A stretch of 64,000 bases of DNA, taken from the IMG/VR virus record IMGVR_UViG_3300021426_000067. One strand, written 5' to 3'. Positions 39,149 to 60,927 of the stretch are shown one piece after another. This DNA comes from a virus (taxonomy: Duplodnaviria > Caudoviricetes). Below the pieces are notes generated by a model. The model searched no databases. It saw only the letters and a list, made by a program, of their open reading frames with translations, and was not told the DNA's origin. Within the stretch, counting starts at the first letter, position 1, and each line of letters starts with the position of its first letter. A program made the translations under genes and the position numbers.

Positions 39149-39157
39149 TAAAAAAAA

Positions 39158-39197
39158 TGGGTAGATACTATAAAAAGTATCTACCCTTTATTTTTTT
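39158..39197. terminator. Bidirectional terminator between convergent operons
   Basis: gggtagatact/agtatctaccc hairpin flanked by A- and T-runs. Confidence 0.75.
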
Positions 39198-39199
39198 GC

Positions 39200-39562
39200 T
39201 TATTTGTATTGATAATCAATATATACATTACTATCTGTTGGTTCAAGAAATTTTATTGAAACAATATGCACATCTTCTAATTCTAACATTCTTGTTTTTC
39301 CAATTTGAAATATTATAGGATTATCATTAGCATTTTCTTTTATTGCTACATGAGCATATTTATCTGGATCTGAGGGAGGCCAATAAACTCCATTTAAATC
39401 AAAATTAAAGTTCCCAGGATAATGAATTCCTATTTTAGTAATATAGTTTATAGGATTCTTACACTGAGCTTGAATACGTGAAACAACATCTTCTGTAGTT
39501 TCAAAAGCACCTCCCTAAAAAGGCCCTTGAATCTGACCAAAGAATCCATTAGTTGCCGCCAT
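39200..39562 (-). CDS. Small virion-associated protein (1 TAG), paralog of 9947-10228
   Basis: GAGGAGG RBS; GQIQGPF*GG...KIGIH...QIGKTRMLELED...IDYQY. Confidence 0.72.
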
Positions 39563-39580
39563 ATATTACCTCCTCAAACA

Positions 39581-42500: not shown

Positions 42501-43645
42501 TGTGAATCAACTTCAATATTTCGAATAGAATTTAAATAAAATTTTTCAGTTTCATTTACAATCTGACTTCCGCTATCAGTATCTTGTTCAATTAAAGTAT
42601 TATATTTAACTGTAACTTCACCAGTCTATTTGTTAAAAGATATATCATCTATCCATCTTATAGGGGTTGAATTAATTTGTTCTATATTATTATCATTCCA
42701 TTGAGTTTGTAAAAGACCCTCATTAGAAAGAGTCATATCTTTAACCCATTTTATTTTTGTATCAGGGTTTATTACAATCGGACCATCATGAAGATAAGTA
42801 ATTCTTATAGAACCATCTTCCTAAAGACTAATATTTTCAATCATATTATAATCGCCAAGATATATTTTTTTAGATTCTCCTTCTTCTGAATTATCATAAT
42901 TATGATATTCATAAATTAAAATTTGTCGATGATTTTCACGATCTTCACGTTGTTTATTGTCTCCATAAGGTTCTACCCCATCATTTTCATCTGCTGTAAT
43001 AACTTGTAAATTTTTAAAACTATCTCCTTTAATACCATTTGGTATATCTAATTGCCATTTTTCATAAAAAGGATGTGAACCATCGTCAATTCGATTAGCT
43101 GCAATATCAACGTAAGGATCTACTTTCTTAAGTGTAAAATCTATTACAGGATATGGAAAGGTAAATCCAATATAAGCTATTGTATTAGTTTTTGTTTCAG
43201 CATCTCTTAAGGAGCAGCAGTGCCAAGAAATTTCATCATGAAAATCATTTCCCTATTTACCTGGAACTAAACTATGATTAGTTAAAGTATAAGAACCATT
43301 ACTAAATCTTGTATCGAATCCCTGATTATCTTTATATTGTTGATATTTTTGTTCAACATCCGCCTCAGTTGTCATCTAAACTTCAGGAGAACCTCCAGCA
43401 GGACCAACAATTGTTCCTATATATTCCGCGCCACCCTGACTGTTTGTATATTCATAACCGCGACGATAAATTTTACCATTATCTTCGCTATTTTTATCTT
43501 GTGTATTAATTATAACATATTCATCATAATGCACATCAGTATAGTTTGGTCCTTTTTTAAAATCATCGACCATATCCTGCACAGTTGGAAAATTCTTAAT
43601 TATGATGAATGAGTTACCTGGTCTTCCGCCATAAAAAGAATACAT
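39581..43645 (-). CDS. Large structural protein with internal MBL-fold hydrolase domain, 1354 aa with TAG readthrough
   Basis: Fragments 43376, 41630, 41195, 40424 and 39581 share one frame; MYSFYGGRPG start; SHYHIDH, PGD and LEHH motifs; WSNW fibre-type motif near the C-terminus. Confidence 0.78.
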
Positions 43646-43647
43646 AT

Positions 43648-44337
43648 TTAATCCTCCTCTTGAGTATATTCAAAATCTAAAATAAAATAATCAATTAAAC
43701 TTCTGGGCACAAACCCAATATAAGTAATTTTAATTTTATTATTATTAAGTTCATAAATTCCATTTTTACCTAATCGAATTTGTTCTCTATTAATACAAGT
43801 TAATAAAGAGGGTGGACCTTGGATACCTATTTTAGTTAAATATCTTACATTTGAATTATTGGCGGTTAAACGTCCCATTATATTAATTAATTGAGCAAAT
43901 TCTTTAATTTCGATTTGAATTTGTCTTGAAGTTTTTCTATAGTCATCCGTAGTTCTTTGTAATTCCCAAACAATTTGATTATAACTATTATTTGGGGCGA
44001 TTATAATTTCTAAAGGTACGGTTTCTTCATCCCCTGCACCTATTTCAAATATTTCAATTAATTGTTCATTGTCTTCTGTTGCTTGTGTATCTCGTAATTT
44101 TAAACGAATAATTTGAATATTATCTACATTTTTCTTAATATTAAAACGAATATAATAACAATTAGTATTATTCATCGTTAAATTACCTTTTAGATTTAAA
44201 CAAGGATTTGTGAAAACAACATCATTAACGGCAACAGTAGTTGTAGATTGCGTTCCTATTTCATAATTTGTATTTTCTTCAAAAGGAATAAAATATTGTT
44301 CCTATGTAGAACGTCTATATTGCCCAATTTTATACAT
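43648..44337 (-). CDS. Putative structural protein (1 TAG)
   Basis: AAGGAG RBS, ATG 44337; C-terminal KIGIQGPP..IRLGKNGIYEL..ILDFEY. Confidence 0.72.
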
Positions 44338-44357
44338 AATCTCCTTTTTCCTCCTTA

Positions 44358-46412
44358 TTAAATTCTTTCTAATGCTTTCACGCAAGATAAACTCATTGTA
44401 CCATCAGTGCCTAATGGTAATGAAATTGAGTTAATCATATAGTCTCCATATATACCTACTTCTAAATTTCTAACAGTAATTCTTACATTCGGTTCTAAAT
44501 AATAAATTGGTATCACTGTTAAAGAAATTTGTTCATTATAGCTGGTGTATTGGTAAAGTTCTTTTCTCATTTCTTCATAAGCAGATCTTAAAACTCCTCC
44601 ATTAGCTAACATAGAATAGGTATCAGGGTCCATTTGAACAAATTCTTGTTTCATATGGATACACTGCTATCTTAACTATGCGACATCTTCATCATCAGTA
44701 TTTATGATAACAATATCTGGATTATCTGGTTCAAATATGCAATTAATTGAGTCATCTACTAAAGTAGTCGTTCTACGACCTATATTATTTACGCTAAATT
44801 CTGAAATTGAACTTGGAGTATCTATAAAATCTAAAAAGAAATCTATATCGCTCGGTTCGGTAATAACATCACCATAAAATTCTTTTTTAGATATATCATA
44901 TAATTTAGGCCACTCATTCTTAAGTTCAGTAAAATAATAATTACTTGTTAATCCTAAGGGTTCACTCGCCACTCCTGATAAATATAACTAAGTTCTATAA
45001 TCAGTTGATTCTACTGAAGTTAATTCATAATTAGTCTCTTCGTATTCATTTTTAACTGGATTCCATTTATAAATAGTTTTAGTTTCGTCTGCATAATAAT
45101 ATTGATCAAATAATCCCGGCACTGGAAAGTCATCTTTTGTTAAAAATTTAATAGGCGCTTTAGCTGCGGGTTTCATAATTCCATTTTCTGGATCAGTATA
45201 AAAAAATATATCAGTATAAACATTTCCAGTTTGAGGTTTTTCATCAATAGCTAAATGATATCTAATAGGAATTTCTTGTCCATCTATTGAAATCCTTTTT
45301 CCCCATATCATAAAATCATTTTTTATTTGCTGATACTGTGGAGCATTGGTGTAAGACTGAATTATATCAGCGCCCTAAAAAGTATATACTGACTTGCCGC
45401 CCGCATAATCAACTAAATAATTGTCGGCATTTATCTAATTAATTTTAAAAGTTGAATATGAAGTATTTAAATAATTCTTTATCTATTGGAATCTAAAATT
45501 TCCTTCTATATCATAGAAATATTCATAATTTCCTAAAGTATCTTTAATTTGATCTAAAATGGTAACTACTGTATCTCCCGCGTTTCCTATTAATTCTCCA
45601 GGATAAGTAAAATCAGTAAGTATATATCCCACATCTTGCCCATAATTAAAACTTGTAAGATTTTTTTCTATTTCTTCTTGAGTTTTATTTTTAGTAAGTT
45701 CATTATAATTAGTTGAATAACGATAATAAATATTATTATTTTCATTATCAAATTCTTGATATAAATAGATAGGAATAGAACCAGTCCATTTCATTACTTT
45801 TTTAATGCGGTTATCTATATCACTAATAATAATTTTCCCAAGTTGCTAACCGCCAAAATGATTTACTAATTCTTGAATAATTTGATAAATAGTTGGTTCA
45901 ATAATAATTCTATCACCATTTACATCTACATCCTACATTTCATGGAATACTACTGATGCGGGGAGGACTCCTCCGCACTATCCATTTAATAAAGCCATTT
46001 TATCATGTAAAGTTAATGAAATATTAATTCCACTTGAATTATAAGTTATATTAGGAGTTACGATAACATATACACCTTGGGGAAACCATAAAATAGGAAA
46101 TTCTTTATATTCATCTGTTGTATTAGTAAAACCTACTAATAATTCAACTTTTTTATTTATACTTAATAAATGTTTTGTGTCAGTTAGATCATTCTAATAA
46201 GGGTCTGCTACTAAACTAATGTTACCTGTTCTCCGCATACTGGAAGAACCATCTAATGAAAGATTGCCGCCCGTAGCTTTTCCTTGTATCTATTGAATAG
46301 GTTGCTAATCAAAAGTTAGAACGATTAATTTAATAAATTGCTATTTTAATTTAATTTTATCAAAGTTTTTAAGAAAGACGGAATCTTTTAAATATGGAAA
46401 ATTATGTTTCAT
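44358..46412 (-). CDS. Putative baseplate/tail protein (DUF5048-like), 684 aa with many TAG
   Basis: Four ORF fragments in frame; IQGKATGGNLSLDGSSSMRRT, DKMALLNG*CGG, ELVNHFGG*Q, PIYYLEPNVRI. Confidence 0.78.
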
Positions 46413-46413
46413 A

Positions 46414-49287
46414 TTAATAGACCCCCTTTACAACTTGACAAGTATAATTAACAATAGCATTAATTGGATGTAACATTTCTCCAGTTCCATGTTCTCCAAC
46501 AAAGAAAGGATACCAAGCATTATGATAATAAATATATTTATTTGAATTTAAAAATTTTTCTTCAATAATTAAAATAAATTTATCATCAGTCTATTCAACA
46601 TGTTCTTCATCCATTAATAAAATAGGATTAAATCCAGCTCCTATGTCATTTTCATCAATTTCTAAAACTGTTTTAGTAATTTGATAGACTCCATTAGGCA
46701 TTGGATTTTCTACTTCATAAAAATTACTATATTCGCCTGCCATAATGGTATATTCTCCTTCTTGAGTTGCGGTAGTATCAGAAGTATCTTGCTTTTGTCT
46801 TAAAAGTATTCCTGAAAAATATAAATCTGTGATTGCCGCATCTTCGTCTCTTAATTGAAGGTATCCATTCTATAAAACATGTCTATCAAAATCATCATCT
46901 TTAGAGTCTTTTATATAGACTATTGTACCAGGCGGCGCTTCAATATCAATCCCATCAACATCAACTAAGTATTGATAAGAAGCATTATATATTTCTCTAT
47001 ATTTATTATAGATTTTTTTCATTAAAGAATCTTGAGGATTAAAAGTTCCATATAATTGTCCTGGTTTATAATAATTATAAGTAGTTTTAGCTACTTTTGA
47101 AACGTCCTCTTTTTCTTCTAATTTTACTACATAATCAATAGTAGCAGTTACAGGGTATTTAAATTTCAAACTGGTAATATAAGTATTATCTTCTTTTAAT
47201 TCAAAATATCCTAAATTTATAATCTAATATGCTGTTTCATCTATATTAGATCTTTTTCTTTCCATTTTAGGGGTAATAAGCATTTCAACCCCATTAATTT
47301 CTACTACATATCCCATTAAACGTCTTAGTGTAGTAGGGGTTGATGCAGTTATTTGAACTAATTGATTTCCCTGCTCAACAACAACATATGGAGCTGATTC
47401 AAAAGTTAATTTTAATGAAGTTAATCCTTTTACTTCATTTAAATAACCTTCATTAGCAGAACTACTATATTTATTTGTTAAAATAGTATTTAAAATGTTT
47501 CCATCTTCAGGTTTAAAATTTTTTTGAACTTGACCTAATAATTCATGAGTATATGTAACCTATGCCTAATATTTTCCTACTGTTTGAATACCATATTTTT
47601 CACAGTTGCGGACAGTTACTTCATCTATTTCTACAGCGGTTGCAGTAAAAGAATATAATTTTCTACCTAAAGATTCAACAGGTTGAAAATCAATATTCAT
47701 CAGTTTAATTAAAATATTACCTTCTGCCGCAGACCTAAATAATTTTATATTATGTTTATATAAAAATTCATAAACCTTGTCTCTAAACTATTTTTCATAA
47801 ATAAAATCATAGTAATCTGAGATTCCATTCTATTGATTATATGTATCATATAAAGATTTACTTTCTTTATAAATTTCTCTTTTAGAAGTAAATAATTTTA
47901 ATTCATTTTCTGAGTTATGAAATTGTCCATCATAAAAATGAGGATCATACCAGTTTGTGGTATCTGATAGAAAAGAAATTAATCCACCAATAGGAAAAGT
48001 TCTAAAGTAATTGTTTCCATTTCTATTGATATATGGATATTTAGCACCAATAGTAACTTGTTGAGATTCTGTAACATTATATTTAAATTCATTTAAAGAA
48101 GGATTAAATTTAATACATAATTGTTCATTTTCTCTTGTTAAGAAAATATCTTCAAATTCACATATTGCAAAATTTGAAAATATAGTTTGTCCGCGGGCGC
48201 CATATGTATTTCGTCTATGAGCGCAGTAGCGATACCAGACTCCACTTTCGATTGTAAAATCTTGCCACTATAAATCTAATGTTTCTTCATTTATATATAC
48301 TATTGTTTTAACATCTTCCCATTTCTTAAAGTCACTTTTAGAAGAAGTTCTTCTAATAGTTAAGTTTCCCATAAACCCTTGACCTTCTGTTTTGGACTTT
48401 ATATTAATTACCATTGTTCCATTTTCTTTATTTGGAGAAGCGGTAATATCTGCATTTAATGGGTCAGCGCCTTCATCTATTATTATAAATTGATATTTTT
48501 TAGTTTCTGTGTATAGATTATTTGTGGTGTATTTAAATTTCATTATATAATGTACACCTTCTACGAAATCATATAATACCTAATAATTAATTTCGTTTGG
48601 ATTATGCGGATTCGTATAAATCTAATCACTTTCCCAAAGGGGTGTTTCAGGATCCTAATTATTATACAGTTTTATTTGATAACTTTTTAAACATTCTTTA
48701 TCATTAGGATCTGCAAAAACGACTGAACCAATAATATCAGTTAAAGATGTTGACAAGGTAGTTTCTTGGAAATCAGCATTTAAATCTCTATTATCATCAA
48801 GACCTTTTAAAACAAGGGTTGGACTTGATATTGCTTTTACTAAACAAACTTTAGACCATTCTGAAAAGTTATCTTGATTTTCTTTTAACCAAACCGCATC
48901 ACCTTTTTCTGAATTATAGCTCTCTTTACAAAATCTTAATTGAGCTTTATAAAATTGATTTAATCCAAAAAAAGTCTAATTTGATCCATCATTTTTTAAA
49001 TCTGATAAATTTATTGAAACAAAATATTTATAATCATTAGTTGAATCATTAATAGTTGCTTCTTCCCAAGAAACATTCACAATTTTTGTCCCAGTTGGCC
49101 AGCTTTCAAGATTTAATACTGAAGCGTTTGTCTTTAAATCAATTAAAGATATTTGAACAGATTTTATATCACTACTTTTATTAAAAGAAGATAATCCAAA
49201 ATAAATATCACAACTTCCAGTATTTTTAAAGGCAGGCTGTGTATCATATACTATGGGAGGATAAAGATTATTAAATATATTACTCAT
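46414..49287 (-). CDS. Putative structural protein, 957 aa with many TAG
   Basis: Fragments 48976, 48268 and 46870 in frame; NNLYPP start; FSEWSKVCL and TIGAKYPY..RNG motifs. Confidence 0.75.
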
Positions 49288-49346
49288 TATAACAGCCTCC
49301 TTTTTTTCTATTTTTCATATATGTATCTCCTTTTTTCTCCTTAGCC

Positions 49347-49847
49347 TTATTTATAACTCATAACATCTTTTCCGCCTTCTTGCGGTGCTTGTTTAGGAAG
49401 GGCACGTAACTCTTCCATAAAACCCTATATAAAAGAATTTCCGCCTTCATCTGTATAATGTTGATAACGTCTTTCTAAACAATCAAGACTGAAATCATCA
49501 ATCCAACCTACATAATAGCAGAAATAGTGGTGATCTCTTGTAATATATGCTTTTATTGCATCTTTATCAGATTGAATAAGCATATCAATTTTGTCTGATA
49601 ATTTACATAAAACGTCATCAGTTACCTGTTGATCTTTTTGTAGAGATTCCATTATGGTACTTCCTTGACGAAGACGTCTTTCTAATTCTTCTTTTGAATT
49701 TATTTTTGAATATTCTTTATCGAAAAATTTTCTTATATAAGTATACCCCCAATCAAAGAAAGTAAGTAAACTCTTTACCGCTAAGGCTAAAAAAACAATA
49801 AAAATAAGAATTTCCTATAAAGAATAATGTTCAAGTAATTCTACCAT
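49347..49847 (-). CDS. Membrane protein (holin-like), 2 TAG
   Basis: GGAGG RBS; N-terminal TM segment, coiled coil, Y..EGGNSFI* motif. Confidence 0.68.
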
Positions 49848-51706: not shown

Positions 51707-51782
51707 AGAGCTGAGAGGGATTTGAACCCCCGAATAATTGGTTTGCAGCCAACCCCCTTTAACCAGACTTGGGTATCAACTC
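51707..51782 (-). tRNA. tRNA-Cys(GCA)
   Basis: Cloverleaf, TTC T-loop, anticodon GCA. Confidence 0.85.
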
Positions 51783-51863
51783 AAAAAGGAAGGCTGGATT
51801 AAAACTATCCAGCCAAAATCAAAAGAAAGGGAATAAAGTGAGAAACTTTATTTCGGATTAAGG

Positions 51864-51931
51864 CAAGACACGAATTTTTATTGACAAAAACCTCTATTTG
51901 ACAAATCTTGATTGATTGCTGCGTGTGTCTT
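51864..51931 (-). ncRNA. ACAGCAA-stem element, copy 1 (GCAGCAA variant)
   Basis: AGACAC-AC-GCAGCAA...GTGTCTTG closing stem. Confidence 0.55.
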
Positions 51932-51937
51932 ATGATA

Positions 51938-52008
51938 AGCACCATGAGGGAGTCGAACCCTCGACTTTTGGTTGGAAGCCAAATATTTTACCGCTAAACT
52001 AATAGTGC
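51938..52008 (-). tRNA. tRNA-Gly(TCC)
   Basis: Cloverleaf, anticodon TCC. Confidence 0.85.
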
Positions 52009-52281
52009 ATGAACGCGAAATTTTAATTTTAGGAGATTTCGCACAACTCCATATACGCGTCTCTTTAAACGTAACTACTTTCCGCGAAGACAACTCATTG
52101 GCTTGAAATTTGCTTTTTCTATATCTTTTAGGTTATAAAAGTATAGCGAGGAAATCTTGAGTAAATTAAGTGCCCGATAAAAACACATTCACATTTCTCA
52201 AGTAAGCTACAGTTATCGGTCAGCAGCCTCGACCAAACTTTCCTCCCCATCGTTAGGCTTTCACTCATTACATTTAAATAG

Positions 52282-52355
52282 CTGGGGTAGTAGGGCTCGA
52301 ACCTACGAATCCGTGAGTCAAAGTCACGTGTGTTTGCCAACTTCACCATACCCCA
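52282..52355 (-). tRNA. tRNA-Gln(TTG)
   Basis: Cloverleaf, anticodon TTG, U1-A72 pair. Confidence 0.85.
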
Positions 52356-52359
52356 TTGT

Positions 52360-52472
52360 CAAGGCGTTTTAAACTAATTATCTAACCATTTGATATACTC
52401 AATAATCACGTGCTTGAGATAGGACTCGAACCTATACGTTTTAGTTAAAAAACTATTTTGCTGTAAACGCCT
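52360..52472 (-). ncRNA. ACAGCAA-stem element, copy 2, with circularly permuted tRNA-like module
   Basis: AGGCGTTT-ACAGCAA...AAACGCCTTG closing stem; T-arm lies 5' of the D-arm. Confidence 0.6.
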
Positions 52473-52474
52473 AA

Positions 52475-52548
52475 TACTCACAGAGGGATTTGAACCCTCG
52501 ACACCTTGATTAAAAGTCAAGTGCTACTACCTGCTGAGCTATGTGAGT
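52475..52548 (-). tRNA. tRNA-Lys(TTT)
   Basis: Cloverleaf, anticodon TTT. Confidence 0.87.
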
Positions 52549-52667
52549 AAAGTTTATATCAGAAAGTCGGACTCGAACCAACATCTTTTTTAGTAAACCC
52601 TCATTGTCATTCGAAGGTGCGGCGTGACCAGCGTCGCAATCTCCCATTGAATTATTTCTGATATAAA

Positions 52668-52742
52668 TCGGAGTAGTAGGATTTGAACCTACGATCTCTT
52701 GATCCCAAATCAAGCGCGCTAACCAAACTACGCTATACTCCG
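52668..52742 (-). tRNA. tRNA-Pro(TGG)
   Basis: Cloverleaf, anticodon TGG. Confidence 0.88.
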
Positions 52743-52750
52743 TTAGAGGG

Positions 52751-52930
52751 TTATTCAACCCATTGAACTTTTTCACTTGATACCCAAGCACCAAAAAGAG
52801 TTACCTTTTTTGTTGTATCTCTGCAAGGGATTTCATCACTCCACACTTCATTTGTTTGTGGATTTCTATGAGTAAACACATAAGTTTTTCCGCCGTACTG
52901 CCCTTTGCGAGTATATTTTTTAATAATCAT
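52751..52930 (-). CDS. Small hypothetical protein (59 aa)
   Basis: Promoter and RBS upstream; MIIKKYTRKGQYGGK...QWVE then TAA. Confidence 0.55.
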   Translation of the reverse strand: MIIKKYTRKGQYGGKTYVFTHRNPQTNEVWSDEIPCRDTTKKVTLFGAWVSSEKVQWVE

Positions 52931-52987
52931 TTTCCTTACCCTTTCTTATATAATTATAATAAAAATTTTTATAATTTTCAAATAAAA

Positions 52988-53061
52988 TACTCAAGGAAGG
53001 AGTTGAACCTTCGACCTTGCGGTTATCAGCCGCATACTCTAACCTACTGAGCTACTTGAGT
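52988..53061 (-). tRNA. tRNA-Ile(GAT)
   Basis: Cloverleaf, anticodon GAT. Confidence 0.87.
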
Positions 53062-53067
53062 AGATAA

Positions 53068-53140
53068 TGCTCGATAATGGACTTGAACCATTGACTTCTA
53101 ACTTGTAAGGATAGCACTCTCCCAGCTGAGTTAATCGAGC
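53068..53140 (-). tRNA. tRNA-Val(TAC)
   Basis: Cloverleaf, anticodon TAC. Confidence 0.83.
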
Positions 53141-53276
53141 AAGTGACAGTTTCCATCTCTTCTCGCTGAAACTGCCAAACCTGAGGGTCTCCCCTTATGC
53201 TTAGCTAAAGCATGAGATATGATTAGTTTATCACCTATTAAAATTATATCAAAACTAATAAAGGTATAATCAGGCG

Positions 53277-53349
53277 TGGAGAATACGGGATTTGAACCCG
53301 TGACCCTTTGCTTGCAAGGCAAATGTTCTCCCAACTGAACTAATCCCCC
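53277..53349 (-). tRNA. tRNA-Ala(TGC)
   Basis: Cloverleaf, anticodon TGC, G3-U70. Confidence 0.9.
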
Positions 53350-53493
53350 AAATGACAGATGTTTTGCCACACTTTTACCCCCTGGAAGGACATCTGCCGC
53401 GCCCCTTCTTCAATAACTGGAAGTGCAGTACAAGTTCCCCTCTACACTTGTAGGTTTGTTCTTGAATAAGACTGGCAAATTTCTTATTAAGAG

Positions 53494-53567
53494 AGGCCCA
53501 TGAGGGACTCGAACCCTCGACACCGTGGTTAACAGCCACGTGCTCTAACCGACTGAGCTAAAGAGCC
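53494..53567 (-). tRNA. tRNA-Asn(GTT)
   Basis: Cloverleaf, anticodon GTT. Confidence 0.87.
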
Positions 53568-53627
53568 TTATTTTTTCCTTTCTTTATCTTACATATATAT
53601 TATATCAAAAATTTTTAAAAAAATCAA

Positions 53628-53882
53628 TTAATGGAGTTCCCACTGGTAATCAAAATATTTTTTATAATCACTTTTTTCTCTTGAACTGTTAATTATATTC
53701 TTTGCTTTTAAACGTGTGATTTTACTACATCTTCTTTTGAGCCAAGCAGTATTAGAACCTTTAATCCTAATGATTCTATCTTTATCTTCATTATACCAGG
53801 CTCCCGCAAACCAATGATTTTTGCTTGCGTTATAAAGTTTCTTTAATCTGTGCTTTTCTTCCATTTTTCTTCGATGAGACAT
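53628..53882 (-). CDS. Small basic hypothetical protein
   Basis: AAGGAGG RBS before MSHRRK. Confidence 0.65.
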   Translation of the reverse strand: MSHRRKMEEKHRLKKLYNASKNHWFAGAWYNEDKDRIIRIKGSNTAWLKRRCSKITRLKAKNIINSSREKSDYKKYFDYQWELH

Positions 53883-54126
53883 AATAAAGACCTCCTTATT
53901 TAAAAAGCATGTAGGTGGGACTCGAACCCACACCACATAGATGATTTTCAAAAGGTGGCTAATCCCTCAAAAATACTGCTACTCCTCTTTTCACAACTAC
54001 TTTTATTAAAATATGACAACTTCAGCCACCGCTTACTCCCTATCTTAATAATTTCGTCTCTATGTGTATCGCCAATGTGACACGGCTCTGACGTCCGCCG
54101 CTCTACCAATTGAGCTACTACATGAG

Positions 54127-54199
54127 TGGATCAGGATGGATTTGCACCACCGACGCGCGGATTTTCAGTCCACTGCTCTACTGCCTGAGCTACTGATCC
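54127..54199 (-). tRNA. tRNA-Phe(GAA)
   Basis: Cloverleaf, anticodon GAA (atypical T-loop). Confidence 0.8.
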
Positions 54200-54211
54200 A
54201 TTTTTTATTAA

Positions 54212-54284
54212 AAGACCGAAAGGGATTCGAACCCTTGACTCTCGCCTTAGAAGGACGATGCTCTATCCACTGAACTATCGGTCC
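54212..54284 (-). tRNA. tRNA-Arg(TCT)
   Basis: Cloverleaf, anticodon TCT. Confidence 0.85.
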
Positions 54285-54288
54285 ATAA

Positions 54289-54372
54289 ATCGACGAGGTA
54301 GGACTCGAACCTACAATGTCCAAAGACAACTGATTTACAGTCAGCCTACTTACCAATTAGTATACCCGTCGA
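54289..54372 (-). tRNA. tRNA-Tyr(GTA)
   Basis: Cloverleaf with variable arm, anticodon GTA. Confidence 0.85.
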
Positions 54373-54376
54373 TAAG

Positions 54377-54464
54377 CGTCAGGGGAGGGATTCGAACCCT
54401 CGAACCACTTCACGTGATTAATTCCTTAGCAGGGAACCGCCTTAAGCCACTCGGCCACCCTGGC
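54377..54464 (-). tRNA. tRNA-Ser(GCT)
   Basis: Long variable arm, anticodon GCT. Confidence 0.87.
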
Positions 54465-54484
54465 GTAGTGCGGATTCCCGCACA

Positions 54485-55030
54485 TTATTCTTCCATTGTA
54501 GCTGTACAATAGAAAATTCCTTTTAAATTAGGATTTTCATTAAAAATATCTCTTGCAATAACTTCATAAATAGTTGTTAAATTGCCATTTAAATCACTTA
54601 AGTTATCATTGTAAAATTGAACAATTTCTGGTTTAAATTCTACATAAACAAAATGATTAGAAAAAATTCCATCAATAACACATACAGTATTCAAAATAGG
54701 ATTTCTTTTAAAAGCTCTCTGAAATAATAAATCTACAGAAGTGCTACTCATATATTGGGATTCTTTATTAAAAGTAAGATGTCCAACAAAAGGAAGTCCA
54801 GTATTAGATGGAATAACATTAATATTTAATGTAGTTGAACCTAAATCAATTTGATAAGGAAGAAGTGCGGCAAGTGCCTCAGCTTTTTCATTATTTTCTA
54901 CATATAACTTTACTGTTAATGGATCATTAATAAATTCAATATCAATTTCAGGGTCTTGGTCAAAAAGAGCCTCAATCTAATTAAATAACGTTACCCAAGG
55001 CGGTGAAAGTTTTGTTTTTGCATATAGCAT
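54485..55030 (-). CDS. Conserved phage hypothetical protein (1 TAG)
   Basis: LSPPWVTLFN*IEALFDQDPEI...VQFYNDNLSDLNG; extends upstream of the ORF-track call via TAG. Confidence 0.72.
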
Positions 55031-55035
55031 ATTTT

Positions 55036-55440
55036 TTACTCTCCTTTTTCAAGTGCATATTTTTCAAGGAACTCATCAGGGTCATCATAGAACATCTGGT
55101 CTAATTTTACCATGTCTAAAGTAGGCAGTTTTGATTCATCTAATTTAGTGCAAACCCACGCAGTATCTTCAGCGGTAATCTGAAATCTAATTGAATCAAC
55201 TTCACTGGCTACATCTTCATCATCGTAATCAATGCCATTAAATTCACATTCAGAACGAACCTCTTCTTCAATATACTCATCTATTGCTGAATAAGAAGAA
55301 ATAATTCGATATGAAAGTTCCATACCTTCATCTTCTGCTTCAGATTCAGTTCCTTTAAAAATTTCATATTCAATCATGCCATTCATGCCTTCAAAATAGA
55401 CATCCCATCCTTTGATTGCCCAAAAAAATTCTTTTTTCAT
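55036..55440 (-). CDS. Acidic hypothetical protein
   Basis: Promoter and RBS upstream, intact ORF. Confidence 0.7.
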   Translation of the reverse strand: MKKEFFWAIKGWDVYFEGMNGMIEYEIFKGTESEAEDEGMELSYRIISSYSAIDEYIEEEVRSECEFNGIDYDDEDVASEVDSIRFQITAEDTAWVCTKLDESKLPTLDMVKLDQMFYDDPDEFLEKYALEKGE

Positions 55441-55503
55441 TTTTCTTTTCCTCTCTTTTGACTTTCTATAAATATTATATCAAAAATTTTATAAAAATTC
55501 AAG

Positions 55504-55590
55504 CGGACAGACTGGGATTCGAACCCAGGAGCCTATTATGACACAGCGGTTTTCAAGACCGCGCCGTTATGACCGCTTCGGTACCTGTCC
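55504..55590 (-). tRNA. tRNA-Ser(TGA)
   Basis: Long variable arm, anticodon TGA. Confidence 0.88.
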
Positions 55591-55591
55591 A

Positions 55592-55663
55592 CAGGACCTC
55601 TTGGACTCGAACCAAGACTTTTAGTTTTGGAGACTAACGTGCTGCCATTAACACCAAAATCCT
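55592..55663 (-). tRNA. tRNA-Trp(CCA)
   Basis: Cloverleaf, anticodon CCA. Confidence 0.85.
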
Positions 55664-55666
55664 AAA

Positions 55667-55740
55667 GGGTGAAGTACCAGAATTGAACTGGTATTAAAAG
55701 AGCCACAATCTCTTGTGTTGCCATTACACCAACTCCACCA
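55667..55740 (-). tRNA. tRNA-His(GTG)
   Basis: Cloverleaf, anticodon GTG. Confidence 0.8.
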
Positions 55741-55744
55741 AACA

Positions 55745-55827
55745 TGCGGGCGGCGAGATTCGAACTCGCAAGGTCTCTCGACCAGAGGATTTTAAGTCCG
55801 CCGTGTATACCGTTCCACCACGCCCGC
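55745..55827 (-). tRNA. tRNA-Leu(TAA)
   Basis: Variable arm, anticodon TAA. Confidence 0.88.
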
Positions 55828-55854
55828 AAAAAAAAACTTTGAAAAAACAATGCG

Positions 55855-56495
55855 TGAATCTTCACCCTACAACCTTATATTCCCTGTTTATTAGACTACC
55901 GAGGAGATAAGTCTGAGCTAAAAGGAGCGACCCTTTAACTTCTTACCCCAGTCTTTCGACCAAAACTCGGACGGGATTGTTTACCCGTAACTTTCACCCA
56001 CCATTCAGAAAATTTTTATTCAAAACCAATCCAAATGGTCATAATAAATAATTATGAATTTGTGTCACCGCCTTAGGGCTACTCGTGCATTGACCTTGTC
56101 TTATATCCTTATTACTAAGGCTTCAAAGCGAACTTCCTTGTTGGCATTTCCTTGGTTTGTAATTGGTGCCACCCAACCACCTAACAAGGATTGTTCCCCA
56201 CAGGGGCGTCTATTATGGAAGCGACAAGAACATCGTCCTAACTAAGAGAATATAATTTGCGCTACCAACCCTCGGCACCCTATCTTTTGATAAGGTAGTT
56301 TTAAGTCATCGCTGACAAAAAACTTCATACTACCTCTAAGTATCCCAAGAGGGCATTTAGCCCGCGCCTTAGCGTGGTTGGTACCTCAGCACAGTGGCAT
56401 CTGCTCTTCACTGAGTTCCGCAAGTATTTTTCAAAGTTCATGTAAGAATTAGTGGTTAAGCTCCACCGCCACGCCAAGGCTTCTTACTTGGTGGA
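55855..56495 (-). ncRNA. Large structured ncRNA, probably ROOL
   Basis: About 600 nt, higher GC, many hairpins, no credible ORF, inside a tRNA array; 3' part GGGTCGCTCC...GCTCAGAC resembles ROOL as I recall it. Confidence 0.55.
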
Positions 56496-56498
56496 GTA

Positions 56499-56614
56499 CA
56501 AGACAGTGTTCCGTGATCTTTCTGTCAGAATCGAACTGACTTTTAATCTTTACCAGAGATTCGTTATACCATTTAACTAAAAAAGAATTTGGAATAATTT
56601 GCTGTAACTGTCTT
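56499..56614 (-). ncRNA. ACAGCAA-stem element, copy 3, enclosing a tRNA-Thr(GGT)-like module
   Basis: AGACAGT-T-ACAGCAA...ACTGTCTTG closing stem around a degenerate cloverleaf. Confidence 0.6.
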
Positions 56615-56646
56615 TATTTTATTATTTATAGTTTCACAGATGGCAA

Positions 56647-56718
56647 AGCAAGTAGTGAGAATTGAACTCACATCTAATCCTTGGCAAGGACTTATAATAA
56701 CCATTATACGATACCTGC
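56647..56718 (-). tRNA. tRNA-Gly(GCC)
   Basis: Cloverleaf, anticodon GCC. Confidence 0.82.
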
Positions 56719-56724
56719 TTAGAA

Positions 56725-56798
56725 TACAGGAAATGGGAGTCGAACCCATAAAATATAGATTTTGAATCTATCATGTATGCCAGTTCCATCATTCCTGC
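56725..56798 (-). tRNA. tRNA-Leu(CAA), short variable loop
   Basis: Cloverleaf, anticodon CAA. Confidence 0.8.
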
Positions 56799-56929
56799 AT
56801 TTATTTTTTCCTTAATCTTTAAATATATTATATAATAATTTTTTAAATTTATCAAATATTTTTTAAAGGCTTTAAGGTCAGCCAACCACATATCCCCGTT
56901 TAACCTCCCGACATTTGTTCTCTGGAGGA

Positions 56930-57002
56930 AGCCAACCCAGGGACTCGAACCCTGAACCCTCTGATTACAAGTCAGATGCTCTACCAATTGAGCTAAGAAG
57001 GC
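56930..57002 (-). tRNA. tRNA-Thr(TGT)
   Basis: Cloverleaf, anticodon TGT. Confidence 0.88.
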
Positions 57003-57158
57003 ATATCATTGTCGAGCGTGCAGTTTCAATCACGCGAATCTGTGTAGGGTTGCAGCGATAGTTTATAGAATATTTCTAAGAGGTGTCTCTCCTCAGTGTC
57101 CCTACGTACCAGCTTTATTTTCTTAATGACTTTTAATGCTTGTCTATCGACAATGGAG

Positions 57159-57234
57159 TTGCGGAAGCGGGATTTGAACCCGCGACCTTTTGCTTATGAG
57201 GCAAACGAGCTTACCGAACTGCTACCATTCCGCA
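57159..57234 (-). tRNA. tRNA-Met(CAT)
   Basis: Cloverleaf, anticodon CAT, initiator-like body. Confidence 0.85.
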
Positions 57235-57243
57235 ATATAAAAA

Positions 57244-57352
57244 CAAGACACAGTGACGTTGGAAGGAATCGAACCTTCATTTTCAGTTTTTCAGACTAAT
57301 ATCTTAACCATTTGATTACAACATTTTTAAATAAGTTTGCTGTTAGTGTCTT
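57244..57352 (-). ncRNA. ACAGCAA-stem element, copy 4, enclosing a tRNA-Phe(GAA)-like module
   Basis: AGACAC-TA-ACAGCAA...GTGTCTTG closing stem around D, anticodon and T arms. Confidence 0.6.
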
Positions 57353-57356
57353 TATC

Positions 57357-57430
57357 TCACCCAGGCAGGATTCGAACCCGCGTTCCGCTGATTTAGAGTC
57401 AGCTGTCTTGGACCGCTCGACTACTGGGCG
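57357..57430 (-). tRNA. Amber-decoding tRNA (anticodon CTA), Glu-like body
   Basis: CGCCCAG TA GTCGAGCGGTCCAAGAC A GCTGA CT CTA AA TCAGC GGAAC GCGGG TTCGAAT CCTGC CTGGGTG A; anticodon at 57394-57396. Confidence 0.92.
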
Positions 57431-57647
57431 AAATAAGAAAAATAGCTTCATCTATTCCTCGCATCCTATACTTATTGCTGATTATATTGGAGCGCTACTC
57501 CAACTGCCAGGCAAGTCACTGTTATACTTAAATAACCGCGGTGACAACGGCTGAATCTCTAAGCTAATGTACACTCGACTTAGTTTTTTTTGCTATTTTT
57601 CAATTTCTATAAATATTATAACAAAAATTTTTAATTTTTGCAAATTA

Positions 57648-57869
57648 TTATTTAAATGACCGATTAAAAATAATTATAGATGGTTTATTACTACCAGTCT
57701 CTTGTTTATATGTTTTATAATAAATTCGATCATCTTTATAACCTTTTGACAATAAAAATTTTGCTATTTTTTGATGAGATTTATTATTAATAATTTGGTC
57801 TTTACACCAATCATTAATTTCTTTTCCAGAAATTGTTTGTCCAATTATAAGAGATAGTGGATTTAACAT
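57648..57869 (-). CDS. Hypothetical protein
   Basis: GAGGAGG RBS, intact ORF. Confidence 0.6.
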   Translation of the reverse strand: MLNPLSLIIGQTISGKEINDWCKDQIINNKSHQKIAKFLLSKGYKDDRIYYKTYKQETGSNKPSIIIFNRSFK

Positions 57870-57886
57870 TTTTAAACCTCCTCAAA

Positions 57887-57958
57887 TCATTCCTATGGGA
57901 TTCGAACCCATATTCTCAGGCTGAGAACCTGAAGTCCTTACCATTAGACGAAGGAACG
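57887..57958 (-). tRNA. tRNA-Glu(CTC)
   Basis: Cloverleaf, anticodon CTC, GTC/GAC D-stem. Confidence 0.88.
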
Positions 57959-57962
57959 AAAG

Positions 57963-58035
57963 TAGCCTCTGCGGGGAACGATCCCGCATCTCCACCTTGA
58001 AAGGGTGGTATCCTCACCAATTAGACGAAGAAGCC
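57963..58035 (-). tRNA. tRNA-Glu(TTC)
   Basis: Cloverleaf, anticodon TTC. Confidence 0.85.
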
Positions 58036-58601
58036 AAAAAGAAATGACTTTGAAACCATTGTACTGCACGGATTCGTAGCAGGACTTCATGCGCATCTAC
58101 CTATTGTTCTATGGAATTTCTCTCTCTGTCCCACCAGGTTCTTCTGGCTTTCCTCTCCTGATTTTACAGCTGATATTATCAGGTTGATATTGTCATTTCT
58201 TTATTATAAATATATTATAATAAAATTTTTTATAATTTTCAAATAAAAAGTAAGGGAAGTGGTTTTGCTTTTAATCTCTTCACGAACTCCACTAAAACTG
58301 GAGAGGCAGAGTTTTCTGTCTCTGTGCCCCGACAAGCGGTAAGGGGGCTACCCCTGCCTAACGTTGGACAAAACGACCTGTGAATCAAAGTTTTAACAGG
58401 TTTTACTTACTCATAAAGATTTAAATATGGTTTTCAAATCTTTTAAGTGCCCTCGACAGGATTCGAACCTGTAAATACGGTCTCCAAATGACATTAAGAA
58501 ACGTTGCTGACAGAATCTTTGTCAAGACTCCCTTATTTACGCGCCTTTTCCAGTTAGGCTACAAGGGCAAAAAAGATTGATTTTTACGTCTTATCTGACA
58601 A

Positions 58602-58676
58602 GCGACCCCAATGGGACTCGAACCCACGGTCTCCTGCGTGACAGGCAGGCGTCTTACTCTTCTCGACTATGAGGCC
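58602..58676 (-). tRNA. tRNA-Asp(GTC)
   Basis: Cloverleaf, anticodon GTC. Confidence 0.87.
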
Positions 58677-58978
58677 GTAAAAGCATATTTCCCTCGCAAG
58701 GACGCATATGCCAGACGCATCAGCTGATTGTGCGTTTCTACCGCAGTTAAGTCAAAGCCTAAACGACACCCAAACGTTTTCCGCTGTTTTCATCATTTCG
58801 GTTCCTCATTCCACCAGAGTGAGGGTACAGCTACCCAGCTCTCTAAGCCACTTCTCATTCTTTTTATCGTCCCGAGTTGCCCAAGACTTCTCTTCTCTTC
58901 GTTACTCTTCATGTTTCCATTACTCTTTACGAAGTGTGCAGGGTCTTTTTTGTTCTCACAATGGTTGACCATCCATCA

Positions 58979-59052
58979 TACTCCAGGTAGGATTCGAACC
59001 CACACTGCACAGATCCTAAGTCTGTTGTCTCCTGCCGTTGGACTACTGGAGC
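58979..59052 (-). tRNA. tRNA-Leu(TAG), short variable loop
   Basis: Cloverleaf, anticodon TAG. Confidence 0.82.
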
Positions 59053-59056
59053 AAAA

Positions 59057-59128
59057 TCATCATAGAGGGAGTCGAACCCCCAGCTTTTGGTTCGTAGCCA
59101 AATGTTTTATCCATTAAACTATACGATG
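59057..59128 (-). tRNA. tRNA-Arg(ACG)
   Basis: Cloverleaf, anticodon ACG. Confidence 0.72.
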
Positions 59129-59133
59129 TTAAA

Positions 59134-59293
59134 CAAGACAGTAAGTTCCTTTCTATCTGTTCCTGTAGGCGATCTATTAAATTAGAACCACGATAAATTT
59201 TGACCCTTTTAATGGCTTCGTTGTCCTCGTCAACGATTACGCAAATTAAATTAAGTTCCTATTTAAATTTTTTATTTGCTGTTTTACTGTCTT
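59134..59293 (-). ncRNA. ACAGCAA-stem element, copy 5
   Basis: AGACAGTAA-A-ACAGCAA...TTACTGTCTTG; directly downstream of a promoter. Confidence 0.55.
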
Positions 59294-59445
59294 TTCTTTA
59301 TCTTACATATATATTATATAATAAATTTTTTAAAAAAACAAATTCGGTCTTTTCCTCGGAAAATACCTATAAAAACTTCAAAAAGTTTTTGTTCAACTTT
59401 ATATATATATTATATAATAATTTTTTAAAAAAATCAAATTATTTT

Positions 59446-59652
59446 TTAACCTAACCATTTAATTACATTTGTATATGCTGTAGGAACAAACTGACCGTTC
59501 TCCAGTTCCAAAATCAAGTTTCCAGCATAATGACCTTGAACAGTACCAATCTTATCTGCAAAATAACCTGTAAGAATAGTAACTTTATCACCCATCGCAT
59601 AATCAAGCGGAGTAGGCTTTCTATTATCAGGTTTCTCTCTTTTAAAAATCAT
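59446..59652 (-). CDS. Small KOW-motif protein
   Basis: GDKVTILTGYFADKIGTV. Confidence 0.65.
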   Translation of the reverse strand: MIFKREKPDNRKPTPLDYAMGDKVTILTGYFADKIGTVQGHYAGNLILELENGQFVPTAYTNVIKWLG

Positions 59653-59724
59653 AAAATACACCTCTTTTCTTGTACTGTAAATCAAAACTTTGGGAAATCA
59701 TTTAATCAACTCCGCCCAAAAATT

Positions 59725-60615
59725 TTAGAAAAATTCTTTAAGTCTTTTGGAACGGATGGGATTACGAAGTTTCTTTAATGCGGCGGCTTCAATCTGTCGT
59801 ACTCTTTCACGAGTAATACGCATCTCTTTTCCAATCTCATCCAGTGTTTTTGCACGATCCTGCCCAATGCCAAATCTCTGAATAATAACTGTTCTTTCTC
59901 TATCACTCAAAGTTTTTAAAACCATCTGGATAGCATCACTCAATTCATTGGCTTCTGCAATAGCAAAAGCAGGAATAACAGTTTCATCTTGAATTAAAGA
60001 GCCAAGTGTGTTATCTTCATCATCACCAACAACTATATCAAGAGAAGTGGTATCACCCATCCAAGCGCGGGCATTTTTAATATGCTCTACAGTTTCATTA
60101 AGAATTTTGGCAATTTCTGCATCACTGGGAGTGCGATGATAATCCTGATCGAAGTCTCGTTCAACCTTTTTAATTTTCCCAATAAGTTCAATAATATGCA
60201 CAGGCACTCTAATATTACGAGACTGTTCTTTAATTGCGGAAGAGATAGCCTGTTTAATCCAATAGGTTGCATAAGTGGAGAATCTAAAACCTTTAGCTAC
60301 ATCAAACTTATCAACCGCCTTCATTAAACCCAGATTACCTTCCTGAATCAAATCAGCAAGAATTAATCCATGTCCCATATATTTCTTTGCAATAGAAACT
60401 ACAAGGCGGAGATTATGTTTAACAAGAATATTTTTGGCTTCCTGGTCGCCGCGCGCCGCATCCTTTGCAAATTCAGTTTCTTCTTCTTTTGTTAAGAGAC
60501 TATACTGACTAATCTCTTGAAGATACATTTTTAAAGAACTTGATGTTACAGCTTCAGGGTTAGATACGATTTTATCATTCTGATTAAATGCTTCCATCAT
60601 AATTGCTTCTGCCAT
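59725..60615 (-). CDS. RNA polymerase sigma70-family factor (RpoD/SigA-like, no region 1.1)
   Basis: [57 protein letters not shown]. Confidence 0.95.
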
Positions 60616-60656
60616 AATGCCCCCTATTATTTTTGTTTTTCTTTATCTTACTTAAT

Positions 60657-60686
60657 TATTATATCAAAATTTTTTAAAAAAATCAA
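60657..60686 (-). promoter_or_regulatory. Sigma70/SigA-type early promoter (representative of at least 15 similar copies)
   Basis: TTGA(T/A/C)-spacer-TG.TATAAT; similar copies near 1030, 3155, 7730, 8300, 9795, 51675, 52955, 53600, 55475, 56830, 57615, 58215, 59410, 61575, 62930, 63635 (minus) and 18949 (plus). Confidence 0.8.
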
Positions 60687-60703
60687 TAAAAAATTTTGAG
60701 AAT

Positions 60704-60775
60704 CGGGCGTGTGAGAATCGAACTCACCCTCTTTGGTTTATAAGACCACTGCATTAACCAACTATGCTAACGCCC
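60704..60775 (-). tRNA. tRNA-Ile(TAT)
   Basis: Cloverleaf, anticodon TAT. Confidence 0.75.
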
Positions 60776-60927
60776 AAAATATCTACCCTAACAGATTTCA
60801 ACAAAGGCTCTGGTTTGGTAGACCCTACTCCTGCCTCTTTTTCGGTATTTCAACAGATTATATCGAGCACCTCAAATCTGAAGCTCCCCTTCCAAGTGCC
60901 GTAGCACCTTACTCGACGTCCAAAATA

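Follow-up and report, generated by a model that had tools for sequence, protein, structure and literature searches.

Phage-encoded suppressor tRNAs that give a stop codon a meaning are a known phenomenon, and the closest described systems are the code-15 gut phages, including the crAss-like, Lak and Agate phages (Borges et al., 10.1101/2021.08.26.457843; Peters et al., 10.1101/2022.01.06.475225). The survey by Borges et al. observed only TAG-to-Gln and TGA-to-Trp in phages (10.1101/2021.08.26.457843), and the isotypes predicted for 180 phage suppressor tRNAs were Gln, Trp, Ile and Tyr, with no Glu (PMC10879173). In the Lak phages TAG was occasionally seen to align with E, and the conclusion drawn was Q (PMC8346664). 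Glutamine was also assumed for TAG in phAss-1, whose Phassvirus group has genomes of ~136 kb, a tape measure protein of ~3150 aa, 36 tRNAs, TAG recoding and Clostridia hosts (PMC10607447). Phage recoding is currently described as TAG-to-Gln or TGA-to-Trp only, gene callers hard-wire TAG as Q, and no report of TAG-to-Glu in phages was found in the searchable full-text literature. UAG (together with UAA) does stand for Glu in two nuclear codes, NCBI table 30 of peritrich ciliates and table 31 of the trypanosomatid Blastocrithidia.

The locus considered here lies in a stretch of phage DNA of 64,000 nucleotides (~30% G+C), which is referred to as a whole as the window. The phage is a tailed one of ~138 kb from a herbivore or gut microbiome, with a probable Bacilli host. 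Its gene at 57430..57357 likely encodes an amber-suppressor tRNA that inserts glutamate at UAG. Recoding of this general kind is known in phages; the Glu assignment is new, and is supported by the comparisons given below.

The suppressor gene and its setting

The features of the window on which the argument draws are these:

57357..57430, minus strand: amber suppressor tRNA, anticodon CUA, C1 to A73 (ARAGORN, Rfam, parsed identity positions)
51707..60777, minus strand: array of 30 tRNA genes, including the suppressor (ARAGORN, Rfam)
55837-56439: ROOL RNA inside the tRNA array (Rfam)
57887..57958, minus strand: tRNA-Glu(CUC), with C1-G72, G2·U71, A73 and the U11-A24 D stem as in the suppressor
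57963..58035, minus strand: tRNA-Glu(UUC) (ARAGORN)
52282..52355, minus strand: tRNA-Gln(UUG), the contrast case, with U1-A72, G2-C71, G3-C70 and G73
57481..57510, minus strand: weak sigma-70-like promoter match, CTGGCA-18-TATAAT, ~50 nt upstream of the suppressor (consensus scan)
10260..49847, both strands: late gene block, with 128 of the window's 138 in-frame TAGs
1169..9237, minus strand: TAG-free replication genes (NAD-dependent DNA ligase, GyrA, GyrB, RNase H, kinase)

The CUA tRNA is canonical and 74 nt long. The original prediction had placed a complete CUA cloverleaf at 57357-57430, and these coordinates prove to run exactly from C1 to A73; Rfam RF00005 spans 57357-57430(-) end to end with 62.2 bits (gathering score 29, E 1e-12), and ARAGORN reports the anticodon cta at 57356-57431(-) under its default label 'Pyl'. 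The acceptor stem pairs C1-G72, G2·U71, C3-G70, C4-G69, C5-G68, A6-U67 and G7-C66 and is followed by the discriminator A73. U8 and A9 precede a D arm of G10-C25, U11-A24, C12-G23 and G13·A22 with a 9-nt D loop that holds G18G19. The anticodon stem is GCUGA/UCAGC around the loop CUCUAAA, in which U33 is present, the variable loop is 5 nt, the T loop is UUCGAAU, and CCA is not encoded. The gene thus has the 7/4/5/5 stems, U8, G18G19, UUCGAAU and the 7-nt anticodon loop with U33 that are expected of an elongator tRNA. A tRNA-Pyl is marked by a small D loop without G18G19, a 3-nt variable loop and a 6-bp anticodon stem. The 9-nt D loop with GG, the 5-nt variable loop and the 5-bp anticodon stem rule out the ARAGORN label, which is also contradicted by TAG partners that are Glu, not Lys.

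It is the sole CUA tRNA in the 30-tRNA array and in the window. An odd Rfam tRNA match at 58448-58568 is no second suppressor; the element resembles a tRNA but has a 28-nt insert. At least six related phage contigs carry a homologue of the CUA tRNA (G001, G002, G005:C144, G005:C69, L184 and the more divergent L181). In an alignment of five copies (window, G001, G002, G005:C144 and G005:C69) all stem positions are paired (100%), and compensatory changes are seen at 7:66 and within the T stem. No other DNA is as well conserved between the window and G001/G002 as this tRNA, which is 95% identical; its flanks cannot be aligned at the DNA level. The window CUA tRNA is therefore shown to be real and conserved. 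The order Glu(UUC)-Glu(CUC)-Sup(CUA)-Met-Thr is common to the window and L181, and the window adds a tRNA-like Phe(GAA) between the suppressor and Met. The promoter match listed above comes from a consensus scan that gave six sites in the region against 3.0 expected from shuffles.

The 138 in-frame TAGs fall in 21 ORFs, with 44 in the tape measure gene, nine in a RuvC-like resolvase and six in a GH25-CHAP-SH3 endolysin; the genes for ligase, GyrA, GyrB, RNase H and a sigma-70 factor have none. Readthrough of TAG fuses ORFs into reading frames of 2823, 1622, 1354, 1208 and 957 aa in a late region that is broken under the standard code, and readthrough of TGA or TAA gives no such long ORFs there. 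TAG is a sense codon in the late genes of the window. That every ORF ends in TAA or TGA is a consequence of TAG readthrough and carries no weight as evidence. The locus combines a CUA anticodon with in-frame TAG in otherwise intact genes and with early genes compatible with the standard code, as is expected of a phage amber suppressor. Since the replication genes are without TAG, their expression needs no departure from the standard code. TAG is present in the structural, lysis and RuvC genes, whose full-length products would be possible only once the suppressor is present. By analogy with the model of Borges et al. (10.1101/2021.08.26.457843), TAG-free early genes beside TAG-rich late and lysis genes suggest that late expression would depend on the suppressor. 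A Gram-positive host is suggested by the endolysin domains and the CW_7 repeats. Metagenomic binning, together with these cell-wall domains, links the phage to Bacilli/Erysipelotrichaceae, and the host is probably a Gram-positive of the class Bacilli.

What TAG encodes

Relatives were found in several ways. A pattern search of IMG/VR with the anticodon arm yielded G001 (complete, 130,060 bp, with terminal repeats) and G002 (a 44-kb fragment), both TAG-recoded and both with the same suppressor; a DNA pattern of the acceptor and D arm matched only G001 and G002, apart from two chance matches that lie in coding sequence. G001 and G002 have GGLMEEC as their Walker B motif. The phage GyrA led to contigs in three MAGs (G003-G005), two labelled Bacilli and one Erysipelotrichaceae, and two conserved proteins led to further related contigs of 100-150 kb. 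Megablast of window positions 10000-34900 against 50,697 phage records gave no match, and in that collection tblastn queries with the endolysin and one structural protein reached only distant relatives. A TAG-free CW_7 protein was also tried as a locus probe; it belongs to a mobile CW_7/endolysin cassette found in unrelated phages, gave four partner codons and was useless for TAG.

The window ORFs were translated with X at TAG and searched with tblastn against G001, and the partner codon was read wherever one genome had TAG and the other a sense codon. Each amino acid was then scored by log-likelihood against its own empirical substitution profile in the same alignments. The 244 TAG-versus-sense columns between the window and G001 have as partners E in 84, D in 26, K in 21, N in 19 and Q in 18, with log-likelihoods of -580.7 for E, -681.9 for D, -695.8 for K and -712.4 for Q. 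The ranking of E is stable when three, five or seven identical residues among ten neighbours are demanded, and at the strictest setting E makes up 23 of 41 partners. The commonest partner codon is GAA, which is two changes from TAG, so that mutational proximity fails to explain the result. Almost entry for entry, the partners of TAG are distributed like those of genuine Glu codons, and the Q share is the same as at the latter.

Wider comparisons agree. With 11 relatives, the window TAGs have 309 partners (E 151, S 24, Q 17) and score -633.2 for E and -884.2 for Q; since pooled partner counts over relatives are non-independent, the per-site count is the conservative figure, and of 94 distinct window TAG sites with a sense partner 43 have Glu on top (plus four ties), followed by Ser at eight and Gln and Asp at seven each. 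The TAGs of G001, compared all against all (n=593, E 255), score -1301 for E and -1686 for Q, and TAG is also assigned to E in G002, L145, L146, L181, L182, L183 and L184. Two relatives served as controls. In G004:C114 (158 kb) the TAG partners (n=268) are led by Q with 80 against 25 for E, and the scores of -712.8 for Q and -870.2 for E give TAG=Gln; in G003:C1 (73 kb) TGA has W in 75 of 141 cases, and -252 for W against -486 for Y gives TGA=Trp. The same method therefore recovers both published phage codes in relatives, plus a third here. In a mixture fit E takes 0.80 of the window TAGs, with Gln not among the top five components, and the E fraction in TAG=Glu genomes is 0.69-0.82 against 0.56 for Q and 0.65 for W in the controls; for G001 and L184 the fit assigns 8-12% to Q.

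Judged from aligned codons, TAG is shown to stand for glutamate in the window phage and its close relatives. This was also the original prediction, which the comparison with relatives decisively supports and to which the recovery of the Gln and Trp controls lends weight. Codon usage does not discriminate Glu from Gln. No TAG falls on a recognised catalytic residue of the RuvC, GH25 or CHAP domains of the window, read by inspection, and hence no single site within the window is decisive.

Comparison with public proteins does not settle the assignment. The RuvC-like protein, set against 120 database homologues, looked like Q at TAG columns; these database proteins were called with TAG=Q and so do not discriminate. 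The public protein set holds hundreds of full-length RuvC-like homologues with Q at the window TAG columns, and their contigs yield them only with TAG=Q; at most TAG columns only Q and E alternate. Q in these homologues reflects the gene-calling convention and is therefore not evidence. Public translations of the clade probably carry Gln where the proteins have Glu.

Identity elements, charging and rival explanations

Identity positions were parsed for the phage tRNAs, for assorted Bacilli tRNAs and for the full tRNA sets of two closed Bacilli genomes (78 distinct tRNAs); the two complete sets replaced a first Bacilli sample that was biased by BLAST selection. The positions compare as follows:

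1:72: host Glu G-C; host Gln U-A; window-type suppressor C-G; G004:C114 suppressor U·U
2:71: host Glu G·U; host Gln G-C; window-type suppressor G·U; G004:C114 suppressor G-C
3:70: host Glu C-G; host Gln G-C; window-type suppressor C-G; G004:C114 suppressor G-C
73: host Glu A; host Gln G; window-type suppressor A; G004:C114 suppressor G
11:24: host Glu U-A or A-U; host Gln C-G; window-type suppressor U-A; G004:C114 suppressor C-G
13:22: host Glu A·A; host Gln A·A; window-type suppressor G·A or A·A; G004:C114 suppressor U·G
D loop: host Glu 8-9 nt; host Gln 7 nt; window-type suppressor 8-9 nt; G004:C114 suppressor 8 nt
Variable loop: host Glu 5 nt; host Gln 5-6 nt; window-type suppressor 5 or 4 nt; G004:C114 suppressor 4 nt

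At every position that discriminates Glu from Gln, save 1:72, the window-type suppressor agrees with Glu. The wobble pair G2·U71 occurs in 4/4 tRNA-Glu and 0/74 other tRNAs of the two complete Bacilli genomes. The five parsed Glu-type suppressors (window, G001, G002, G005:C144 and G005:C69) have C1-G72, G2·U71, C3-G70, U11-A24, purine13·A22 and a D loop of 8-9 nt, and four of the five have A73 (U73 in G005:C144). By inspection the L184 suppressor fits the Glu type, and the divergent L181 copy has G1·U72, G2·U71 and an encoded CCA. The suppressor of G004:C114 is Gln-like in its acceptor and at 11:24. The suppressor type tracks the amino acid, being Glu-type in the TAG=Glu phages and Gln-type in the TAG=Gln relative. 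The window suppressor is shown to bear, in its acceptor and D arm, features by which host-type tRNA-Glu is told apart from tRNA-Gln. As had been predicted, it has C1-G72, G2·U71, A73 and the GUC/GAC D stem in common with the tRNA-Glu(CUC) at 57887-57958, and it lacks the U1-A72 pair of the tRNA-Gln(UUG) at 52282-52355, which proves to have G73 as well; indeed the whole Gln-type acceptor set (U1-A72, G2-C71, G3-C70, G73) is absent. A single change was said to separate CUC from CUA, and only position 36 of the anticodon differs.

The likeness to Bacilli tRNA-Glu is incomplete. The suppressor has C1-G72 and lacks their G1-C72; in the two host sets C1-G72 is found in tRNA-Pro only, and it is also present in the phage's own tRNA-Glu(CUC). 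Its anticodon is CUA, not the YUC of tRNA-Glu. U11-A24, proposed in the original prediction as a GluRS determinant, is a major one for E. coli GluRS (PMC9976931). The full E. coli set comprises U34, U35, C36 and A37, U11-A24, U13·G22··A46, the absence of residue 47, and weakly G1-C72 and U2-A71 (PMC9976931); only U35, A37 and U11-A24 are present in the suppressor, which is without U34, C36, U13·G22··A46, the residue-47 deletion, G1-C72 and U2-A71. The E. coli rules are a poor yardstick, since Bacilli tRNA-Glu itself deviates from them (5-nt variable loop, A13·A22, G2·U71). For the same reason the 5-nt variable loop, raised earlier as a caveat, is correct as a length but fails as an argument against Glu, as Bacilli tRNA-Glu also has 5 nt; the more distant homologues G005:C144, G005:C69 and L181 have 4 nt.

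Overall similarity gives a mixed picture. BLAST against the 50,697 phage records returned near-full-length matches only to the annotated tRNA-Glu(CUC) of the Streptomyces phages BillNye and Circinus (76.8% over positions 3-71; loop CUCUAAA in the suppressor and CUCUCAA in these). Against 199 Bacilli-phylum genomes the matches were mainly to the anticodon and T arm of tRNA-Lys(CUU), and positions 26-63 of the suppressor are 84-89% identical to Bacilli tRNA-Lys(CUU). Global alignment of the window copy to the two host sets gave Lys 25, Glu 21 and Asp 19. The resemblance of the body to the short-arm tRNA(UAG) at 58979-59052, which had been pointed out as a caveat, is borne out, with 66% identity over the acceptor and D arm; at 0.66 this ties with the best Glu. 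Nearest-neighbour identity is too noisy for isotype assignment. The identity elements are here called Glu-type, and descent from tRNA-Glu, which they may suggest, is not claimed as proven.

In the complete relative G001, neither PF00749 (the GluRS/GlnRS-type catalytic domain, class Ic) nor an RF-1 family gene was found, and the host's own GluRS would charge the suppressor. GatB is present and PF03950 (the GlnRS-type C-terminal domain) absent in the MAGs G003-G005, into which related phage contigs are binned, and such hosts probably make Gln-tRNA via a non-discriminating GluRS and GatCAB. A non-discriminating GluRS would already accept C or G at position 36, and these hosts would have no GlnRS by which CUA tRNAs could be captured. 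As its first pair bacterial GatCAB favours U1-A72 over G1-C72, and an extra D-loop base leads it to reject tRNA-Glu (PMC2811023); the features of its substrate, U1-A72 and a D loop without the extra base, are absent from the window suppressor. Glu-tRNA(CUA) would be predicted to escape conversion to Gln in indirect-Gln hosts, since C1-G72 in place of U1-A72, plus the 9-nt D loop, lead one to expect Glu to stay Glu. The suppressor of G004:C114, with its weak U1·U72 and Gln-type body, would be amidated. Once charged, the suppressor would compete with RF1 at UAG. U34 and C36 are strong determinants for E. coli GluRS, and B. subtilis GluRS reportedly relies mainly on modified U34 (PMC9976931); as the suppressor anticodon has neither U34 nor C36, charging by GluRS is not guaranteed. 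We infer glutamylation from the meaning of TAG and from the fact that this is the sole CUA tRNA. The phage tRNA-Glu(CUC) provides an example of a C34 Glu tRNA with C1-G72, which implies nothing about the charging efficiency of either tRNA.

Three other explanations deserve to be weighed against a Glu-inserting suppressor. Decoding might be ambiguous, with mixed charging (Glu plus Gln or Lys) and TAG placed at sites that tolerate several polar residues. The anticodon arm does resemble tRNA-Lys(CUU), and U35 and A73, which are LysRS elements, are both present in the suppressor; K, D, N and Q account for 5-10% of partners apiece, the mixture fit leaves 8-12% for Q in G001 and L184, and most TAGs are held by weakly conserved structural proteins. 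We nevertheless consider this unlikely: the TAG profile mirrors that of genuine Glu codons, the E fraction of the mixture fit exceeds that of Q and W in controls that are unambiguous, and E climbs to 23/41 in the most conserved contexts. A Glu suppressor supplied by the host or by another factor, with the window gene a relic or in some other role, would account for L182 and L183, which read TAG as Glu and have no CUA tRNA within 10 kb beside the conserved marker gene, in the part of each genome that was examined. Such a decoder is highly improbable given that the tRNA stays 95% identical between the window and G001/G002 while its flanks fail to align, that its stems keep pairing through compensatory changes, that the window has no other CUA tRNA, and that the host-type GyrA and GatB genes of the MAGs are without in-frame stops.

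The least probable explanation, and an extremely improbable one, is an ordinary code-15 suppressor that reads UAG as glutamine. It has the published default of TAG=Gln on its side (10.1101/2021.08.26.457843; PMC10607447), as well as the public gene calls, which write TAG as Q for the clade, a Q share of 5-8% among TAG partners, and the statement that E. coli CUA suppressors are often glutaminylated (10.1101/2021.08.26.457843). The log-likelihood, however, favours E over Q by ~250 in the window and ~385 in G001, and the Q share is no higher than at true Glu codons. The method is able to return Q, as it does for G004:C114, the bearer of a Gln-type tRNA, and the window suppressor has none of U1-A72, G2-C71, G3-C70 and G73. 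A GlnRS-type domain is likewise missing from the MAGs linked to the clade. Insertion of Glu by the suppressor remains the preferred reading.

A wider reading is held more tentatively, as quite possible yet short of probable. A gut/rumen phage family of ~130-150 kb may have evolved TAG-to-Glu (for which the searchable literature gave no description in any virus or prokaryote), TAG-to-Gln and TGA-to-Trp; a suppressor derived from tRNA-Glu would exploit indirect-Gln hosts, GluRS would charge both kinds of suppressor, and the check made by GatCAB on the first pair and the D loop would set Glu versus Gln. The host-pathway explanation of the Glu assignment is plausible. The amino acid of a reassignment may depend on the aminoacylation pathway of the host, as without GlnRS CUA tRNAs would not be captured for Gln, and this view makes the question of why stops go to Gln and Trp testable. 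If TAG is Glu, the public 'code 15' translations of the whole clade have Gln in its place, and Q stands wrongly for E in thousands of deposited proteins from an abundant group of herbivore-gut phages. The TAG=Glu clade would represent a further natural genetic code, and its tRNA, a natural Glu amber suppressor beside a bacterial translation apparatus, would be of interest to code engineers.

Comparison with known systems

The arrangement is much like that of the code-15 gut phages, in which the CUA tRNA is likewise part of a tRNA array, TAG is missing from early genes and abundant in structural and lysis genes, and a host synthetase is presumed to do the charging. A genome of ~130-140 kb and a TGA-recoded relative are reminiscent of the Agate clade. 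The window differs from the code-15 gut phages in its assignment of Glu and not Gln, in the Glu-type acceptor and D arm of its suppressor, and in likely hosts without GlnRS. With the phAss-1 group it has in common a similar size, a siphovirus-like giant tape measure protein, a large tRNA set, CUA suppressors, TAG in late genes and the lack of a phage synthetase. Gln is assigned in that group, and searches of the phage record collection with window DNA 10000-34900 and two window proteins gave no close relatives, so kinship is unestablished.

Among tRNAs, the suppressor resembles Bacilli-type tRNA-Glu and the tRNA-Glu(CUC) of BillNye and Circinus in G2·U71, C3-G70, A73, U11-A24, purine13·A22 and an 8-9 nt D loop with AGYGG, and the 76.8% identity with BillNye includes the loop CUCU-AA. 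It departs from them in having A36 instead of C, C-G instead of G-C at 1:72 and an anticodon stem like that of tRNA-Lys(CUU).

Tables 30 and 31 resemble the present case in that a UAR-family stop is reassigned to Glu through a suppressor tRNA. They are, however, eukaryotic nuclear codes, with release-factor changes and usually with both UAA and UAG reassigned, whereas here a virus alters UAG alone in a cell that apparently keeps the standard code. Kleina, Normanly, Abelson and Miller are said to have engineered tRNA-Glu(CUA) amber suppressors in E. coli in 1990, which reportedly were largely mischarged with Gln by GlnRS. These too joined a tRNA-Glu body to a CUA anticodon; unlike E. coli, a host without GlnRS would remove the route to Gln mischarging, and a Glu code may for that reason be viable here.

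Codes of related phages and their public translations

One phage family holds three codon reassignments, with TAG read as Glu in the window, TAG as Gln in the related contig G004:C114 (loci L101-L108), and TGA as Trp in a second related contig, G003:C1 (loci L097-L100). A Gln-type suppressor tRNA is encoded by the first of these contigs:

G004:C114 80518-80592, Gln-type suppressor tRNA

In public protein collections, the entries of the window's own clade (P0004-P0123, homologues of its RuvC-like protein; loci L144-L147) are translated with TAG as Gln and flagged 'with_TAG=Q'. As a consequence, hundreds of deposited sequences show Gln at positions that are probably Glu. In two TAG-recoded relatives, the complete genome G001 and the 44-kb fragment G002, the terminase Walker B motif is GGLMEEC (near 103850, (-), and near 40499, (+), respectively).

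The tRNA array and relatives of the suppressor

The features considered in and beside the array, and their counterparts in relatives, are as follows:

50102-51646 (-), DUF2828/DUF7788 vWA protein gene, adjoining the array
55837-56439 (-), full-length ROOL RNA (Rfam RF03087, 360.8 bits)
56725-56798 (-), tRNA with 'Leu' anticodon CAA and short variable loop
58448-58568 (-), tRNA-like element (Rfam tRNA, 40.5 bits)
58979-59052 (-), tRNA with 'Leu' anticodon UAG and short variable loop
G002 (L024) 6307-6384 and 5209-5286, counterparts of the two 'Leu'-anticodon tRNAs
L181 1984-2058 (+), divergent CUA suppressor homologue

In both the window and G002, the UAG and CAA 'Leu'-anticodon tRNAs have a class-I short variable loop in place of the long arm. 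The UAG-anticodon tRNA resembles the CUA suppressor in features of its acceptor, D arm and T arm. The suppressor homologue in the relative L181 has the loop CCCUAAC, placing C33 where U33 is near-universal, together with G1·U72, a variable loop of 4 nt and an encoded CCA. The tRNA-like element carries a 28-nt insert directly past its anticodon loop, and was called by ARAGORN in intron mode only, as 'Leu(aag)'. The ROOL RNA lies in the middle of the array. The DUF2828/DUF7788 protein is very widespread (7983 of 8000 scored candidates at E<=1e-30), and its gene is a handy marker for retrieving tRNA arrays from relatives.

A CW_7 pair in the late block

Within the TAG-rich late block are two CW_7-repeat paralogues free of TAG:

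24632-25903 (+), CW_7-repeat paralogue
36405-37574 (+), CW_7-repeat paralogue

On otherwise unrelated IMG/VR contigs (L001-L006), such paralogues (61-76% identity) form an adjacent pair beside an endolysin, an arrangement that resembles a mobile cassette for lysis or cell-wall binding.
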